A DNA stretch of 64,000 bases from Escherichia coli (lineage in GTDB: Bacteria > Pseudomonadota > Gammaproteobacteria > Enterobacterales > Enterobacteriaceae): assembly GCF_024502345.1 (NCBI RefSeq), contig NZ_JALDNN010000001.1; one strand, given 5' to 3'. The notes under the pieces are model-generated. The model was not told where the DNA came from. It saw only the letters and a program-made list of their open reading frames with translations, and did no database searches. Position 1 is the first letter of the stretch; the number at the start of each line of letters is the position of its first letter. The position numbers were made by a program, and so were the translations under genes. This document shows positions 2,744-9,272 of this stretch, in pieces.

Positions 2744-2877
2744 GACGTTTTGACTTTCCTCAAAATGTAATACGGGAGATTCTCTGTTCCTGCTCCCGGT
2801 TAAGACCAGCTACAATAGCACACTATATTAAACGGCAAAGCCGTAAAACCCCAACGATAAACGAAGAAGCAGTATAT

Positions 2878-3858
2878 ATGGCACAACGAGTACAGCTCAC
2901 TGCAACGGTGTCCGAAAACCAACTCGGTCAACGCTTAGATCAGGCTTTGGCCGAAATGTTCCCGGATTATTCACGTTCGCGAATAAAAGAATGGATCCTC
3001 GACCAGCGCGTGCTGGTTAACGGCAAACTTTGTGATAAGCCGAAAGAAAAAGTATTGGGTGGCGAGCAGGTTGCCATCAACGCAGAGATTGAAGAAGAAG
3101 CGCGTTTTGAACCGCAGGATATCCCGCTGGATATCGTCTATGAAGATGAAGACATCATCGTCATTAATAAACCGCGCGACCTGGTGGTTCATCCTGGCGC
3201 GGGTAACCCGGATGGCACGGTACTGAATGCGTTGCTTCATTATTATCCGCCTATTGCCGATGTACCGCGTGCGGGCATCGTCCATCGTCTGGATAAAGAC
3301 ACCACTGGCCTGATGGTTGTGGCAAAAACCGTTCCGGCTCAGACGCGTTTAGTCGAATCTTTGCAAAGGCGTGAAATTACTCGTGAGTACGAAGCGGTGG
3401 CGATTGGTCATATGACCGCTGGCGGTACGGTGGATGAGCCAATCAGTCGCCACCCGACCAAACGTACTCACATGGCGGTGCATCCGATGGGCAAACCAGC
3501 GGTGACTCACTATCGCATCATGGAACACTTCCGTGTGCACACGCGTCTGCGGTTGCGTCTGGAAACTGGACGTACGCACCAGATCCGCGTGCATATGGCC
3601 CATATCACTCATCCGCTGGTGGGCGATCCGGTTTATGGTGGCCGTCCGCGTCCGCCAAAAGGTGCTTCGGAAGCGTTTATCTCCACGCTGCGTAAGTTTG
3701 ACCGCCAGGCGCTTCATGCAACCATGCTGCGTCTTTATCACCCGATCTCCGGCATCGAAATGGAATGGCATGCGCCTATTCCACAAGATATGGTGGAGCT
3801 GATTGAGGCGATGCGTGCCGATTTCGAAGAACATAAGGATGAAGTGGACTGGTTATGA
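2878..3858 (+). CDS. rluD: 23S rRNA pseudouridine synthase D
   Basis: 326-aa ORF with S4-like N-terminus and the pseudouridine synthase motif HRLDKDTTGL; recognised as RluD. Confidence 0.9.
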   Translation: MAQRVQLTATVSENQLGQRLDQALAEMFPDYSRSRIKEWILDQRVLVNGKLCDKPKEKVLGGEQVAINAEIEEEARFEPQDIPLDIVYEDEDIIVINKPRDLVVHPGAGNPDGTVLNALLHYYPPIADVPRAGIVHRLDKDTTGLMVVAKTVPAQTRLVESLQRREITREYEAVAIGHMTAGGTVDEPISRHPTKRTHMAVHPMGKPAVTHYRIMEHFRVHTRLRLRLETGRTHQIRVHMAHITHPLVGDPVYGGRPRPPKGASEAFISTLRKFDRQALHATMLRLYHPISGIEMEWHAPIPQDMVELIEAMRADFEEHKDEVDWL

Positions 3859-4586
3859 GTAAGCTGATTGTCCCGCAGTGGCCGCTGCCAAAAGGTGTTG
3901 CGGCTTGTAGCTCTACTCGTATCGGCGGCGTGAGCTTGCCCCCGTATGACTCGCTCAACCTCGGTGCCCATTGTGGCGATAACCCGGATCACGTTGAGGA
4001 GAATCGCAAGCGACTTTTTGCTGCGGGCAATTTGCCTTCTAAACCGGTCTGGCTTGAGCAGGTACACGGCAAAGATGTGCTTAAGCTTACTGGCGAACCT
4101 TATGCCTCAAAACGAGCAGATGCCTCTTATAGCAATACGCCTGGCACGGTTTGCGCAGTGATGACTGCCGACTGCCTCCCTGTGCTGTTTTGCAATCGAG
4201 CGGGAACGGAAGTCGCCGCCGCTCATGCTGGCTGGCGTGGACTGTGCGCAGGCGTGCTGGAAGAGACAGTTTCCTGTTTTGCTGATAATCCGGAAAATAT
4301 TCTCGCCTGGTTAGGGCCGGCAATTGGTCCACGCGCGTTCGAAGTGGGGGCGGAGGTTCGCGAGGCGTTTATGGCAGCAGACGCCAAAGCGAGTACAGCT
4401 TTCATTCAGCATGGTGATAAGTATCTGGCGGATATTTATCTGCTTGCCCGGCAGCGTCTGGCGAGCGTTGGTGTTGAACAAATTTTCGGCGGCGACCGTT
4501 GTACATATACGGAAAATGAGACTTTCTTCTCTTATCGTCGCGACAAGACCACCGGGCGTATGGCAAGTTTCATTTGGCTGATATAA
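3855..4586 (+). CDS. pgeF: YfiH/PgeF family protein (DUF152; purine nucleoside phosphorylase / laccase-like)
   Basis: 243-aa ORF whose ATG overlaps the rluD stop (ATGA); recognised as YfiH. Confidence 0.85.
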   Translation: MSKLIVPQWPLPKGVAACSSTRIGGVSLPPYDSLNLGAHCGDNPDHVEENRKRLFAAGNLPSKPVWLEQVHGKDVLKLTGEPYASKRADASYSNTPGTVCAVMTADCLPVLFCNRAGTEVAAAHAGWRGLCAGVLEETVSCFADNPENILAWLGPAIGPRAFEVGAEVREAFMAADAKASTAFIQHGDKYLADIYLLARQRLASVGVEQIFGGDRCTYTENETFFSYRRDKTTGRMASFIWLI

Positions 4587-4647
4587 CCTAAAGAATCAAG
4601 ACGATCCGGTACGCGTGATTTTCTTTTCACATTAATCTGGTCAATAA

Positions 4648-4679
4648 CCTTGAATAATTGAGGGATGACCTCATTTAAT
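4648..4679 (+). promoter_or_regulatory. Sigma-32 (heat-shock) promoter of clpB
   Basis: CCTTGAAT (-35), 14-bp spacer, CCTCATTTA (-10): matches the sigma-32 consensus CTTGAA / CCCCATnT; about 40 bp upstream of the clpB start. Confidence 0.6.
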
Positions 4680-4715
4680 CTCCAGTAGCAACTTTGATCC
4701 GTTATGGGAGGAGTT

Positions 4716-7289
4716 ATGCGTCTGGATCGTCTTACTAATAAATTCCAGCTTGCTCTTGCCGATGCCCAATCACTTGCACTCGGGCACGACAACCAATTCA
4801 TCGAACCACTTCATTTAATGAGCGCCCTGCTGAATCAGGAAGGGGGTTCGGTTAGTCCTTTATTAACATCCGCTGGCATAAATGCTGGCCAGTTGCGCAC
4901 AGATATCAATCAGGCATTAAATCGTTTACCGCAGGTTGAAGGTACTGGTGGTGATGTCCAGCCATCACAGGATCTGGTGCGCGTTCTTAATCTTTGCGAC
5001 AAGCTGGCGCAAAAACGTGGTGATAACTTTATCTCGTCAGAACTGTTCGTTCTGGCGGCACTTGAGTCTCGCGGCACGCTGGCCGACATCCTGAAAGCAG
5101 CAGGGGCGACCACCGCCAACATTACTCAAGCGATTGAACAAATGCGTGGAGGTGAAAGCGTGAACGATCAAGGTGCTGAAGACCAACGTCAGGCTTTGAA
5201 AAAATATACCATCGACCTTACCGAACGAGCCGAACAGGGCAAACTCGATCCGGTGATTGGTCGTGATGAAGAAATTCGCCGTACCATTCAGGTGCTGCAA
5301 CGTCGTACTAAAAATAACCCGGTACTGATTGGTGAACCCGGCGTCGGTAAAACTGCCATCGTTGAAGGTCTGGCGCAGCGTATTATCAACGGCGAAGTGC
5401 CGGAAGGGTTGAAAGGCCGCCGGGTACTGGCGCTGGATATGGGCGCGCTGGTGGCTGGGGCGAAATATCGCGGTGAGTTTGAAGAACGTTTAAAAGGCGT
5501 GCTTAACGATCTTGCCAAACAGGAAGGCAACGTCATCCTGTTTATCGACGAATTACATACCATGGTCGGCGCGGGTAAAGCCGATGGCGCAATGGACGCC
5601 GGAAACATGCTGAAACCGGCGCTGGCGCGTGGTGAATTGCACTGCGTAGGTGCCACGACGCTTGACGAATATCGCCAGTACATCGAAAAAGATGCTGCGC
5701 TGGAACGTCGTTTCCAGAAAGTGTTTGTTGCCGAGCCTTCTGTTGAAGATACCATTGCGATTCTGCGTGGCCTGAAAGAACGTTACGAATTGCACCACCA
5801 TGTGCAAATTACTGACCCGGCAATTGTTGCAGCGGCGACGTTGTCTCATCGCTACATTGCTGACCGTCAGCTGCCGGATAAAGCCATCGACCTGATCGAT
5901 GAAGCAGCATCCAGCATTCGTATGCAGATTGACTCAAAACCAGAAGAACTCGACCGACTCGATCGCCGTATCATCCAGCTCAAACTGGAACAACAGGCGT
6001 TAATGAAAGAGTCTGATGAAGCCAGTAAAAAACGTCTGGATATGCTCAACGAAGAACTGAGCGACAAAGAACGTCAGTACTCCGAGTTAGAAGAAGAGTG
6101 GAAAGCAGAGAAGGCATCGCTTTCTGGTACGCAGACCATTAAAGCGGAACTGGAACAGGCGAAAATCGCTATTGAACAGGCTCGCCGTGTGGGTGACCTG
6201 GCGCGGATGTCTGAACTGCAATACGGCAAAATCCCGGAACTGGAAAAGCAACTGGAAGCCGCAACGCAGCTCGAAGGCAAAACTATGCGTCTGTTGCGTA
6301 ATAAAGTGACCGACGCCGAAATTGCTGAAGTGCTGGCGCGTTGGACGGGGATTCCGGTTTCTCGCATGATGGAAAGCGAGCGCGAAAAACTGCTGCGTAT
6401 GGAGCAAGAACTGCACCATCGCGTAATTGGTCAGAACGAAGCGGTTGATGCGGTATCTAACGCTATTCGTCGTAGCCGTGCGGGGCTGGCGGATCCAAAT
6501 CGCCCGATTGGTTCATTCCTGTTCCTCGGCCCAACTGGTGTGGGGAAAACTGAGCTTTGTAAGGCGCTGGCGAACTTTATGTTTGATAGCGACGAGGCGA
6601 TGGTCCGTATCGATATGTCCGAGTTTATGGAGAAACACTCGGTGTCTCGTCTGGTTGGTGCGCCTCCGGGATATGTCGGTTATGAAGAAGGTGGCTACCT
6701 GACCGAAGCTGTGCGTCGTCGTCCGTATTCCGTCATCCTGCTGGATGAAGTGGAAAAAGCGCATCCGGATGTCTTCAATATTCTGTTGCAGGTACTGGAT
6801 GATGGGCGTCTGACTGACGGGCAGGGGAGAACGGTCGACTTCCGTAATACGGTTGTCATTATGACCTCTAACCTCGGTTCCGATCTGATTCAGGAACGCT
6901 TCGGTGAACTGGATTATGCGCACATGAAAGAGCTGGTGCTCGGTGTGGTTAGCCATAACTTCCGTCCGGAATTCATTAACCGTATCGATGAAGTGGTGGT
7001 CTTCCATCCGCTGGGTGAACAGCACATTGCGTCGATTGCGCAGATTCAGTTGAAACGTCTGTATAAACGTCTGGAAGAACGTGGTTATGAAATCCACATT
7101 TCTGACGAGGCGCTGAAACTGCTGAGCGAGAACGGTTACGATCCGGTCTATGGTGCACGTCCTCTGAAACGTGCAATTCAGCAGCAGATCGAAAACCCGC
7201 TGGCACAGCAAATACTGTCTGGTGAATTGGTTCCGGGTAAAGTGATTCGCCTGGAAGTTAATGAAGACCGGATTGTCGCCGTCCAGTAA
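4716..7289 (+). CDS. clpB: Chaperone ClpB (Hsp100 disaggregase, AAA+)
   Basis: Track ORF begins at 4704, but the ATG at 4716 follows a perfect GGGAGGAG SD and gives the canonical 857-aa [11 protein letters not shown]... protein; two Walker A motifs ([16 protein letters not shown]). Internal GTG at 5160 (Val149) with its own GGAGG SD matches the known short ClpB isoform start. Confidence 0.95.
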
Positions 7290-7295
7290 ATGATA

Positions 7296-7322
7296 AAACG
7301 AGCCCTTCGGGGCTCGTTTTTG
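7296..7322 (+). terminator. Rho-independent terminator of clpB
   Basis: Hairpin AAACGAGCCCTTCGGGGCTCGTTT followed by TTTTTG, 7 bp after the clpB stop. Confidence 0.7.
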
Positions 7323-7404
7323 TCTATAATTTAGACGGAAAAGACTATATTTAAGATGTTTTGCCTGAAAAGTGAGCGAACGATAAAGTTTTTATATTTT
7401 TCGC

Positions 7405-7432
7405 TTGTCAGGCCGGAATAACTCCCTATAAT
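7405..7432 (+). promoter_or_regulatory. rRNA operon promoter P1 (A/T-rich UP element upstream)
   Basis: TTGTCA (-35), 16-bp spacer, TATAAT (-10), preceded by the A/T-rich run AAAGTTTTTATATTTTTCGC; classic rrn P1 architecture. Confidence 0.75.
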
Positions 7433-7521
7433 GCGCCACCACTGACACGGAACAACGGCAAACACGCCGCCGGGTCAGCGGGGTTCTTCTGAGAATCTCA
7501 ACAGAGAAAAGCAAAAAATGC

Positions 7522-7549
7522 TTGACTCTGTAGCGGGAAAGCGTATTAT
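7522..7549 (+). promoter_or_regulatory. rRNA operon promoter P2
   Basis: TTGACT (-35), 16-bp spacer, TATTAT (-10), about 115 bp downstream of P1. Confidence 0.7.
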
Positions 7550-7587
7550 GCACACCCCGCGCCGCTGAGAAAAAGCGAAGCGGCACT

Positions 7588-7607
7588 GCTCTTTAACAAT
7601 TTATCAG
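7588..7607 (+). promoter_or_regulatory. rrn leader boxA antitermination element
   Basis: TGCTCTTTAACAATTTATCA matches the rrn boxA consensus in the leader between P2 and the 16S gene. Confidence 0.7.
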
Positions 7608-7730
7608 ACAATCTGTGTGGGCACTCGAAGATACGGATTCTTAACGTCGCAAGACGAAAAATGAATACCAGGTCTCAAGAGTGAACACGTAATTCATTAC
7701 GAAGTTTAATTCTTTGAGCATCAAACTTTT

Positions 7731-9272
<1,542 letters not shown>

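Follow-up and report, generated by a model that had tools for sequence, protein, structure and literature searches.

Sigma32 promoter, two translation starts and the overlapping small RNA gene ryfD in the 5' control region of Escherichia coli clpB

The sigma32 promoter of clpB, the start of its 857-aa product and the internal start at Val149 have been known from publications since the early 1990s, and Kitagawa et al. (1991) reportedly announced sigma32 control of the gene in the title of their paper. At the consensus sigma32 promoter, dnaK P1, transcription begins 7 nt after CCCCATTTA (PMC10216364). The internal start of clpB gives a retapamulin-arrested initiation peak at the Val149 GTG in E. 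coli (Ribo-RET; bioRxiv 10.1101/520783), and in Salmonella the mutation of GTG-445 to CTT abolished the short form (PMC11005335). The small RNA RyfD, whose gene overlaps the promoter, has a primary transcription start site at its annotated 5' end, identified by three methods (PMC3415461, Table S2). Its 3' end, at K-12 position 2734153 (PMC7815308, supplements), which corresponds to position 4736 here, gives a very strong Term-seq signal and has a low Rho score (1.28). RyfD is an abundant ProQ ligand, with the lpp 5'UTR (TRIC-seq) and RaiZ (RIL-seq) as trans partners. Its Yersinia homologue, Ysr155, is found in the same genomic context and is constitutive and temperature-independent.

Our analysis concerns a window of 64,000 nucleotides of E. 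coli DNA with the gene order rluD-yfiH-clpB-rrsG. Very probably, its positions 4594-5162 form a layered 5' control region of clpB, comprising a sigma32 promoter, translation starts at 4716 and 5160, and the overlapping ryfD gene. The elements of the clpB 5' region that had originally been noted are all textbook ones, already present in the K-12 annotation, and none of them is new. Their practical value is that of a positive control for the reading of raw sequence, which here recovered an alternative-sigma promoter, put right the start implied by the longest ORF and revealed a true internal start of translation. What is of wider interest is that a constitutive small RNA gene and a heat-shock promoter occupy the same DNA.

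The window is 98.8% identical to K-12 over positions 2800-7800, and completely identical between 4586 and 4740. Its closest relative is O145:H28 (99.9%), and it belongs to another E. coli lineage than K-12. The region is present in 5,425 of 5,426 complete E. coli genomes. Upstream of clpB, on the same (+) strand, lies yfiH (pgeF; 3855-4586, from the ORF list and the K-12 and O145 annotations), with its TAA stop codon at 4584-4586. Mapping of the K-12 RefSeq features placed clpB at 4716-7289 (857 aa), the 'ClpB80' CDS at 5160-7289 and ryfD (b4609) at 4594-4736. Downstream of clpB, a GAGCCC-TTCG-GGGCTC hairpin followed by a T run (7297-7324, + strand) was read from the sequence as its intrinsic terminator; it is absent from the list of the automated terminator scan.

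Sigma32 promoter and translation starts of clpB

The initial annotation had proposed a good sigma32 promoter upstream of clpB, and this proposal is borne out. The -35 element CTTGAA (4649-4654, + strand) agrees with the consensus at 6 of 6 positions (PMC10216364) and is kept in 78 of 81 loci; the -10 element CCTCATTTA (4669-4677, + strand) follows after a 14-nt spacer and matches CCCCATTTA of dnaK P1 at eight of nine positions. A C-rich -10 of the type CCCCATNT, 13-15 nt past the -35, is part of what defines a sigma32 (RpoH) promoter, and CCTCATTTA is such an element. The pattern CTTGAA-N13-15-CCYCATNT is unique in the 64-kb window, both strands included, and did not occur in any of 100 dinucleotide-preserving shuffles of it, while TTGAA-N13-16-CCYYATNT is found at about -66 in 78 of the 81 Enterobacterales loci. 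The sequence blocks originally given, CCTTGAAT (4648-4655) and CCTCATTTA, are correctly positioned. The 14-nt spacer written between them is not correct, as these blocks are separated by 13 nt (4656-4668); the spacing is 14 nt only if counted from the hexamer CTTGAA to CCTCATTTA. A terminator-like match at 4659-4673 was discarded, as it corresponds to the promoter spacer and -10 region within RyfD and is no terminator. Because the +1 of dnaK P1 sits 7 nt past its CCCCATTTA, we infer by analogy a sigma32 transcription start at A4684 (+ strand), which would give clpB a leader of about 32 nt. RNA polymerase carrying sigma32 would recognise CTTGAA, 14 nt and CCTCATTTA, and produce a heat-inducible clpB mRNA from near A4684.

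The full-length protein (ClpB95, 857 aa) is encoded at 4716-7289 on the + strand, as annotated in K-12 and by PGAP. It matches the NCBIfam ClpB equivalog NF008118 with 1926.7 bits (cut-off 1417), and TIGR03346 with 1470.9 bits (cut-off 1232). Pfam recognises two stretches of Clp_N, AAA (203-336), AAA_lid_9 (342-442), AAA_2 (596-760) and ClpB_D2-small (766-845). The full-length equivalog match above cut-off, together with an N-domain, two AAA+ modules and a D2-small domain, identifies the product as a ClpB/Hsp100 disaggregase.

Mechanical ORF calling yields a longer frame, 4704-7289 (861 aa), which opens with an ATG (4704-4706, + strand) in frame with the ATG at 4716. Anti-SD pairing energies were ranked over the 53 in-frame ATG, GTG and TTG codons of this ORF. 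Two of them stand apart, GTG 5160 (-10.6 kcal/mol) and ATG 4716 (-10.2 kcal/mol), the next best reaching -6.4 kcal/mol; pairing as strong as theirs is found at only 0.2-0.4% of + strand NTG triplets in the window. The Shine-Dalgarno sequence of ATG 4716 is GGGAGGAG (4706-4713, + strand), whose GGAGG core hardly varies among 61 taxa. Ribosomes would bind this sequence and initiate at ATG 4716 to produce the 857-aa ClpB, leaving ATG 4704 unused.

The second strong site had been read as the start of the known N-terminally truncated isoform, with a strong Shine-Dalgarno sequence at correct spacing, and both parts of this reading agree with our results. GGAGGTGAAAGC (5148-5159) directly precedes GTG 5160-5162, which is codon 149 in frame with ATG 4716. 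It contains a GGAGG (5148-5152, + strand; Gly145-Gly146) 7 nt upstream of the GTG, with the best pairing energy among the 53 codons. The resulting ClpB80 CDS (5160-7289, + strand; 709 aa) is listed in RefSeq (YP_010051194.1) and lacks the N-terminal domain, the two Clp_N repeats recognised by Pfam ending before residue 149. The site has the make-up of a dual-start gene, an in-frame start in the linker after the N-domain with a Shine-Dalgarno sequence 5-9 nt upstream. GTG occupies codon 149 in 70 of 81 loci and accounts for 89% of the Val codons in this column, as compared with 5-59% at other conserved Val columns. Similarly, Gly145 is encoded by GGA in 58% of taxa and in 85% of the 34 closest, as compared with 0-25% at most other conserved Gly columns. 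The lineages without GTG (Yersinia, Photorhabdus, Moellerella and Dickeya) also have a weak Shine-Dalgarno sequence, no stronger than -6.4 kcal/mol, so that the two signals are lost jointly. Such codon usage indicates that the start signals at 5148-5162 are selected beyond the need of protein coding. This second GGAGG would recruit ribosomes, on the same mRNA, to GTG 5160 in the linker that follows the N-domain; the ClpB80 so produced would lack the substrate-binding N-domain and would co-assemble with the full-length form.

Two other readings of these starts have to be considered. The longest-ORF track would have the full-length protein begin at ATG 4704, which is in frame, is the first start codon past the upstream stop and is present in the closest Enterobacteriaceae. 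This reading is effectively refuted, as this ATG has no Shine-Dalgarno sequence (+0.6 kcal/mol, rank 49 of 53) and immediately precedes that of the start at 4716, with which it overlaps by 1 nt. Outside the closest genera and in other families the codon is ATT, TAG, ATA, ACG or ACA, whereas ATG 4716 is invariant; moreover, NF008118 aligns over residues 1-857 of 857 from Met 4716 without any N-terminal overhang. K-12 RefSeq, as well as the PGAP annotation of the closest genome, places the clpB start at 4716 and not at 4704, confirming the earlier remark that the track begins 12 nt upstream of the SD-supported ATG. For the internal site, GGAGG-N7-GTG could be a coding by-product of Gly-Gly-Glu-Ser-Val, the short form arising by proteolysis or from an internal transcript. 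The Gly-Gly motif is indeed invariant at the protein level and part of the internal Shine-Dalgarno sequence is therefore forced by coding, and an internal transcript start has been described for the Leptospira clpB expressed in E. coli (PMC6941012). Nevertheless, we give next to no credence to this explanation. It is opposed by the synonymous constraint on GTG at codon 149 and GGA at Gly145, by the joint loss of the two signals in the same lineages and by the promoter scan, which detected no promoter-like site inside clpB upstream of 5160. The retapamulin peak at the site of GTG 5160 (bioRxiv 10.1101/520783), the loss of short ClpB in the Salmonella GTG to CTT mutant (PMC11005335) and the separate ClpB80 entry in RefSeq also speak against it.

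The ryfD gene and its closing helix

The small RNA gene ryfD (143 nt; 4594-4736, + strand) is located here by alignment with K-12 b4609, by the Term-seq 3' end and by Rfam RF02768, which matches positions 4597-4735 on the + strand over its whole length (model 1-140 of 140) with 125.3 bits (gathering threshold 42; E=4.6e-28). Like RyfD elsewhere, it sits between yfiH and clpB, on the same strand, over the clpB start. The initial annotation mentioned an sRNA gene close to clpB without being able to place it. This was right, and the alignment now gives its position; 'close' proved an understatement, as ryfD overlaps the clpB promoter, leader and first codons, enclosing the sigma32 promoter, the 5'UTR, the Shine-Dalgarno sequence and codons 1-7.

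A putative sigma70 promoter of ryfD (4560-4587, + strand) consists of a -35-like ATGGCA (4560-4565), a 16-nt spacer and an extended -10 TGATATAAC (4579-4587) that runs over the yfiH stop codon; its TATAAC ends 7 nt upstream of the annotated RyfD 5' end. The region is conserved, a conservation that is inseparable there from the coding constraint on yfiH. A sigma70 consensus scan of the window did not list this promoter because its -10 ends in C and the scan demands T at the sixth position. The assignment therefore combines a manual reading with the published transcription start site; the ROSE supplement holds no entry for clpB or ryfD.

RyfD is predicted to fold with -52 kcal/mol (z=-5.6). In this minimum free energy structure, a closing helix pairs a 5' arm (4598-4621, + strand) with a 3' arm (4711-4733, + strand) made up of the 3' end of the clpB Shine-Dalgarno sequence, the AUG and codons 2-6, and includes a perfect 10-nt inverted repeat (4598-4607 with 4724-4733). 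The pairs of the E. coli structure were projected onto a MAFFT alignment of 61 upstream regions. Across these 61 taxa, 84% of the closing-helix cells are paired in register, as compared with 33-42% when the arms are slid, and seven pairs have changes on both sides. RNAalifold did not recover the closing helix from the raw MAFFT alignment of the same 61 regions, in which taxa without the arm are present and the centre is poorly aligned. Synonymous changes in clpB codons 2-6 are rare in taxa with the 5' arm (8 of 360) as compared with taxa without it (11 of 39), in raw counts that ignore kinship, and where the arm is present the changes are either compensated or compatible with wobble pairing. 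The first codons of a gene are, however, often under constraints of another kind. The comparative evidence thus indicates that a conserved closing helix, with compensatory support, joins the 5' and 3' ends of RyfD. Two internal hairpins, CCUUGA/UUGAGG and UGAGG/CCUCA, fall on the sigma32 -35, spacer and -10; they are nearly invariant apart from one G-C to A-U event, found in three related taxa, and RNA and promoter constraints are inseparable in them. A role of the closing helix as a thermometer was rejected, as the fold keeps a predicted -37 kcal/mol even at 50 C.

RyfD transcripts and the translation of clpB

The position of the RyfD start upstream of the sigma32 promoter indicates that RyfD is the product of a tandem upstream promoter, and not a fragment of the sigma32 mRNA. 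RyfD would then be the primary transcript of a constitutive promoter of its own, situated at the yfiH stop codon, whose elements are those proposed above, and its transcription would cross the sigma32 promoter DNA and end 21 nt into clpB. The closing helix would pair the sequence that follows yfiH with the clpB Shine-Dalgarno sequence, AUG and codons 2-6. As the helix covers both the Shine-Dalgarno sequence and the AUG, transcripts from the RyfD promoter would carry a sequestered clpB initiation region. In contrast, sigma32 transcripts would start inside the loop, about 4684 and thus 1 nt past a CUCC anti-SD, and would be translatable as they are devoid of the 5' arm. Structure predictions are consistent with this difference, the mean unpaired probability of the Shine-Dalgarno sequence and AUG being 0.09 in RyfD-start transcripts versus 0.27-0.31 in sigma32-start transcripts, and the predicted stability -52 versus -8.7 kcal/mol. 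A weak local hairpin is predicted over part of the Shine-Dalgarno sequence in the sigma32 transcript as well, so that the contrast in accessibility would be quantitative and not all-or-none. From these models we infer that only sigma32-initiated transcripts would be readily translated. It is tempting to go further and to suggest that the closing helix gates clpB translation according to the promoter used, with silent transcripts from the RyfD promoter and translation of sigma32 transcripts only; we regard this as possible, if somewhat improbable. Termination or trimming would turn the silent transcripts into the stable RyfD that ProQ binds. An incomplete search of the literature found no paper proposing such a gate of clpB by the RyfD helix.

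RyfD could be imagined as nothing other than the 5' part of the sigma32-driven clpB mRNA, left by attenuation or processing, without any separate transcript. The 3' half of RyfD has the very sequence of the clpB leader and first seven codons, and the authors of the Yersinia study considered that 5'-overlapping RNAs could stem from attenuation or processing. We consider this origin very unlikely since RyfD begins at 4594, some 55 nt ahead of the sigma32 -35 and some 90 nt ahead of the predicted sigma32 start, a primary (5'-triphosphate) start site is reported exactly there (PMC3415461) and an extended -10 motif is found at the right distance from it; the level of RyfD in Yersinia is, in addition, independent of temperature. 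A rival of another kind accepts RyfD as a separate transcript and holds that its closing helix is conserved purely for the small RNA, for stability, ProQ binding or 3'-end formation, without any role in clpB translation. We give this explanation close to an even chance, as RyfD is abundant, binds ProQ and has the lpp 5'UTR and RaiZ as trans partners, and both of its mapped ends fall 3-4 nt outside the helix, as a protective terminal stem would give. However, a role in the small RNA and a role in gating are not mutually exclusive, and the modelled helix would physically bury the Shine-Dalgarno sequence and AUG in every transcript from the RyfD promoter, whatever its purpose.

If the closing helix does act as a promoter-selective gate, ClpB synthesis would be strictly dependent on heat shock despite high constitutive transcription of the start region. 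A helix over the clpB ribosome-binding site would offer a simple account of how ClpB synthesis escapes being driven by upstream transcription. The overlap also has a practical consequence: ryfD knock-outs delete the clpB promoter and start as well, and their phenotypes would be confounded.

Relation to known systems

The clpB gene of the window shares with that of E. coli K-12 (b2592; ClpB and ClpB80) the mapped coordinates, the 857-aa product and the GTG at codon 149, and no functional difference was found between them. With dnaK P1, its promoter has in common CTTGAA, the 14-nt spacing and an extended, C-rich -10 that ends in CATTTA, and differs by its own -10, CCTCATTTA, at one of nine positions. 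Unlike dnaK P1, the clpB promoter DNA lies inside a small RNA gene that is transcribed through the promoter. Among the E. coli genes with in-frame internal starts, infB and mrcB similarly have one mRNA with two initiation sites and an N-terminally shortened isoform, as seen by Ribo-RET. The internal start of clpB differs from theirs in that it removes exactly one folded domain and consists of a GTG with a very strong Shine-Dalgarno sequence embedded in Gly-Gly codons. The ryfD gene agrees with the RyfD/Ysr155 family (RF02768) in its full-length model match, its position between yfiH and clpB and its strand; no difference was apparent and it is the E. coli member of this family. Finally, RyfD resembles leader-overlapping and 5'UTR-derived small RNAs in being a small stable RNA with a stretch of sequence in common with an mRNA 5' end, but differs from them in that it begins upstream of the mRNA's own promoter.

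The clpB locus and its translation starts

The window at 2800-7800 corresponds to E. coli rluD-yfiH-clpB-rrsG with 98.8% identity to K-12 (4586-4740 is identical), and the region was found in 5,425 of 5,426 complete E. coli genomes. Mapped K-12 RefSeq features place clpB (857 aa) at 4716-7289, a second CDS for the short isoform ClpB80 at 5160-7289 and the 143-nt ncRNA gene ryfD (b4609) at 4594-4736. The protein was identified as ClpB by the NCBIfam equivalog NF008118 (1926.7 bits, aligned 1-857/857). For comparison, 80 Enterobacterales clpB loci were fetched by protein anchor, independently of the signals discussed here. Every element of the initial annotation is already known and annotated; its observation was confirmed and its interpretation is supported. 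The modest interest that remains lies in a promoter inside an sRNA gene and in a conserved helix over the clpB ribosome-binding site.

ATG codons lie in frame at 4704 and 4716, as previously noted, and the 'track start' at 4704 is that of the mechanical longest ORF (4704..7289, 861 aa). Anti-Shine-Dalgarno pairing was scored 5' of all 53 in-frame ATG, GTG and TTG codons of this ORF. GTG 5160 (-10.6 kcal/mol) and ATG 4716 (-10.2) scored best, followed by a codon at -6.4, and ATG 4704 ranked 49th (+0.6); pairing as good as that of the two leading codons precedes only 0.2-0.4% of the + strand NTG triplets in the window. Outside the closest genera, which alone retain the ATG at -12 (4704), this codon is ATT, TAG, ATA, ACG or ACA. 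Across the compared loci there is essentially no variation in ATG 4716 or in the GGAGG core of its SD, and the PGAP annotation of the closest genome likewise starts clpB at 4716. Since NF008118 aligns over 1-857/857, the family model leaves no room for a four-residue extension from 4704. A full-length start at 4704 is thus contradicted by every test and can be excluded; SD pairing, conservation, annotation and family alignment agree on 4716, the start favoured by the initial annotation.

The internal start proposed there also proved real. GGAGGTGAAAGC occupies 5148-5159 and is directly followed by GTG 5160-5162, codon 149 from ATG 4716. Pfam places two Clp_N repeats before residue 149 and begins the first AAA module at about residue 203; the ClpB80 start lies in the linker and takes off exactly the N-domain. 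Codon 149 is GTG in 70 of 81 sequences (GTT in 8, ATT in 2, GTC in 1), and GTG makes up 89% of the Val codons at this column versus 5-59% at eight other conserved Val columns. At Gly145, GGA (which makes GGAGG) is used by 58% of taxa overall and by 85% among the 34 closest; its share at most other conserved Gly columns is 0-25%. In the lineages lacking the GTG (Yersinia, Photorhabdus, Moellerella, Dickeya) the SD is weak as well, at best -6.4 kcal/mol, and the two signals are lost jointly. This pattern shows nucleotide-level selection at the internal start, beyond the needs of the protein sequence. A coincidental SD-GTG is excluded, being contradicted both by this synonymous-site pattern and by published mutagenesis: in Salmonella, changing GTG-445 (CDS nucleotide 445, window 5160) to CTT abolished the short form, an effect that mutation of Met143 did not have (PMC11005335). 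Ribo-RET in E. coli placed a specific peak of initiation at the internal site already known in clpB (bioRxiv 10.1101/520783), and SD strength and the RefSeq ClpB80 feature concur. The two isoforms assemble into hetero-oligomers whose disaggregase activity is enhanced (summarised in PMC6941012).

An ATG at codon 143 (5142-5144) lies 18 nt 5' of the real internal start; a published Salmonella Ribo-RET pipeline mis-called this Met143 codon as the internal start, and mutagenesis identified the Val149 GTG as the true start (PMC11005335). The non-GTG loci (L054, L055, L057, L059, L063, L064, L067-L069, L073 and L075; locus positions 1627-1647) carry GTT, ATT or GTC, with GGTGGT in place of GGAGG, and two Photorhabdus have ATT, a rare start codon, at codon 149. 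These lineages either lack ClpB80 or initiate it at another site.

Downstream, a clpB terminator lies at 7297-7324 (a clear hairpin, GAGCCC-TTCG-GGGCTC, then a T run), although it was missed by the consensus terminator scan. At 7360-7609 an Rfam match to Ysr197 stays below threshold (84 bits versus a gathering score of 167); it spans the promoter and leader region of the rRNA operon, which separates clpB from the 16S gene, and the near-consensus sigma70 promoters inside it, at 7405-7432 (11/12) and 7522-7549 (10/12), are most likely rrnG P1 and P2.

RyfD and its closing helix

The sRNA gene ryfD, which the initial annotation mentioned as close to clpB, could be placed at 4594-4736: Rfam RF02768 (Ysr155_RyfD) matches 4597-4735 on the + strand over the full model (125 bits versus a gathering score of 42), in agreement with the mapped K-12 feature. 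The gene starts 8 nt past the yfiH stop, ends 21 nt inside the clpB ORF and encloses the entire clpB sigma32 promoter, leader, SD and first seven codons. Any ryfD deletion strain, including those in published collections of single or double sRNA deletions, would therefore also lose clpB expression signals, so that ryfD deletion phenotypes are confounded.

It might be supposed that RyfD is a fragment of the sigma32-driven clpB mRNA. This is excluded, as its 5' end lies about 90 nt upstream of the predicted sigma32 start and is a primary TSS by three methods (PMC3415461 Table S2), and its level is temperature-independent in Yersinia, where the homologue (~138 nt) is expressed whatever the temperature or hfq status (PMC3672283). 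Term-seq mapped a very strong 3' end to K-12 2734153, window 4736, with a Rho score of just 1.28 (PMC7815308 supplements). RyfD is abundant among ProQ ligands (PMC8136791, PMC9438474) and, according to a recent preprint, pairs with the lpp 5'UTR. An extended -10, TGATATAAC, at 4579-4587 overlaps the yfiH stop codon and ends 7 nt 5' of 4594, and a -35-like ATGGCA lies 16 nt 5' of TATAAC. We take these as the putative RyfD promoter, whose conservation is inseparable from yfiH coding and which a simple sigma70 scan of the window did not list.

The predicted RyfD fold (-52 kcal/mol, z=-5.6 versus shuffles) is closed by a helix of ~23 bp between a 5' arm (4598-4621) and a 3' arm (4711-4733) comprising the SD 3' end, the AUG and codons 2-6; a predicted inner stem pairs CUCC 4680-4683 with GGAG 4707-4710. 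When 61 taxa were aligned with MAFFT in an unbiased way, pairing of the closing helix was 84% in register versus 33-42% with the partner slid by 1-3 columns, and seven pairs have changed on both sides. As the 3' arm is coding, synonymous sites provide a sharper test. Codons 2-6 show 8 synonymous changes per 360 codons in the 72 taxa with the 5' arm and 11 per 39 in the 8 taxa without it (Fisher 8e-8, a statistic that ignores phylogeny). Matched changes in the 5' arm accompany CGT to CGC in Shimwellia and Acerihabitans (A to G), GAT to GAC in two Erwinia (A to G) and CTT to CTA in Tatumella (A to T). Here a clpB coding segment is co-evolving with an intergenic segment via an RNA helix. At the compensated loci (L034, L048, L051, L053, L058, L062) the 5' arm is non-coding and lies ~115 nt upstream of codons 2-6.

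The sigma32 promoter and possible gating of clpB translation

The promoter blocks were found where first reported, CCTTGAAT at 4648-4655 and CCTCATTTA at 4669-4677. The claimed 14-nt spacer is correct if the -35 is taken to be the canonical CTTGAA hexamer (4649-4654), but the blocks as written are 13 nt apart. CTTGAA-N13-15-CCYCATNT has a single match in the 64-kb window, both strands included, and none in 100 dinucleotide-preserving shuffles; the promoter pattern and the SD signals exceed chance. In the Enterobacterales comparison, 78 of the 81 sequences carry a sigma32-type TTGAA-N13-16-CCYYATNT ~66 nt 5' of the ATG. Kitagawa et al. in 1991 reportedly placed clpB under sigma32 control, as their title has it.

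The promoter spacer and -10 (4659-4673) form an inverted repeat, TGAGG...CCTCA, which is TAAGG...CCTTA in three related loci (L060, L061 and L074; two Xenorhabdus and one unclassified Enterobacteriaceae MAG). This G-C to A-U swap also weakens the sigma32 -10 (CCTCAT to CCTTAT) and, being a single event, does not allow RNA-structure and promoter constraint to be separated.

The sigma32 start, predicted at A4684, falls within the RyfD loop, 1 nt beyond the CUCC anti-SD, and the heat-shock mRNA would therefore be without both pairing partners. Mean unpaired probability over SD and AUG is predicted at 0.27-0.31 for this mRNA versus 0.09 for transcripts from 4594, with competing structures of -8.7 versus -52 kcal/mol. 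We infer that the closing helix may silence upstream-initiated transcripts for clpB translation, these ending as RyfD, and that sigma32-initiated transcripts would be translated. Alternatively, the helix may equally be kept merely for RyfD stability or ProQ binding. A literature search found no paper on helix gating of clpB translation. The predicted sigma32 transcript (4684-4736) has a weak local hairpin, AACUUU 4690-4695 paired to GGAGUU 4710-4715, that covers part of the SD. The unpaired probability predicted there for a short construct is 0.25 at 30 C and 0.50 at 50 C; this mild thermometer-like tendency may be meaningless.

The scaffold of a sigma32 open-complex structure, built on the dnaK P1 consensus, reads CTTGAA-N14-CCCCATTTA with +1 seven nt further on (PMC10216364). 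The clpB promoter matches it at 6/6 and 8/9 positions with equal spacing, which leads to the predicted +1 at A4684 and a leader of 32 nt.
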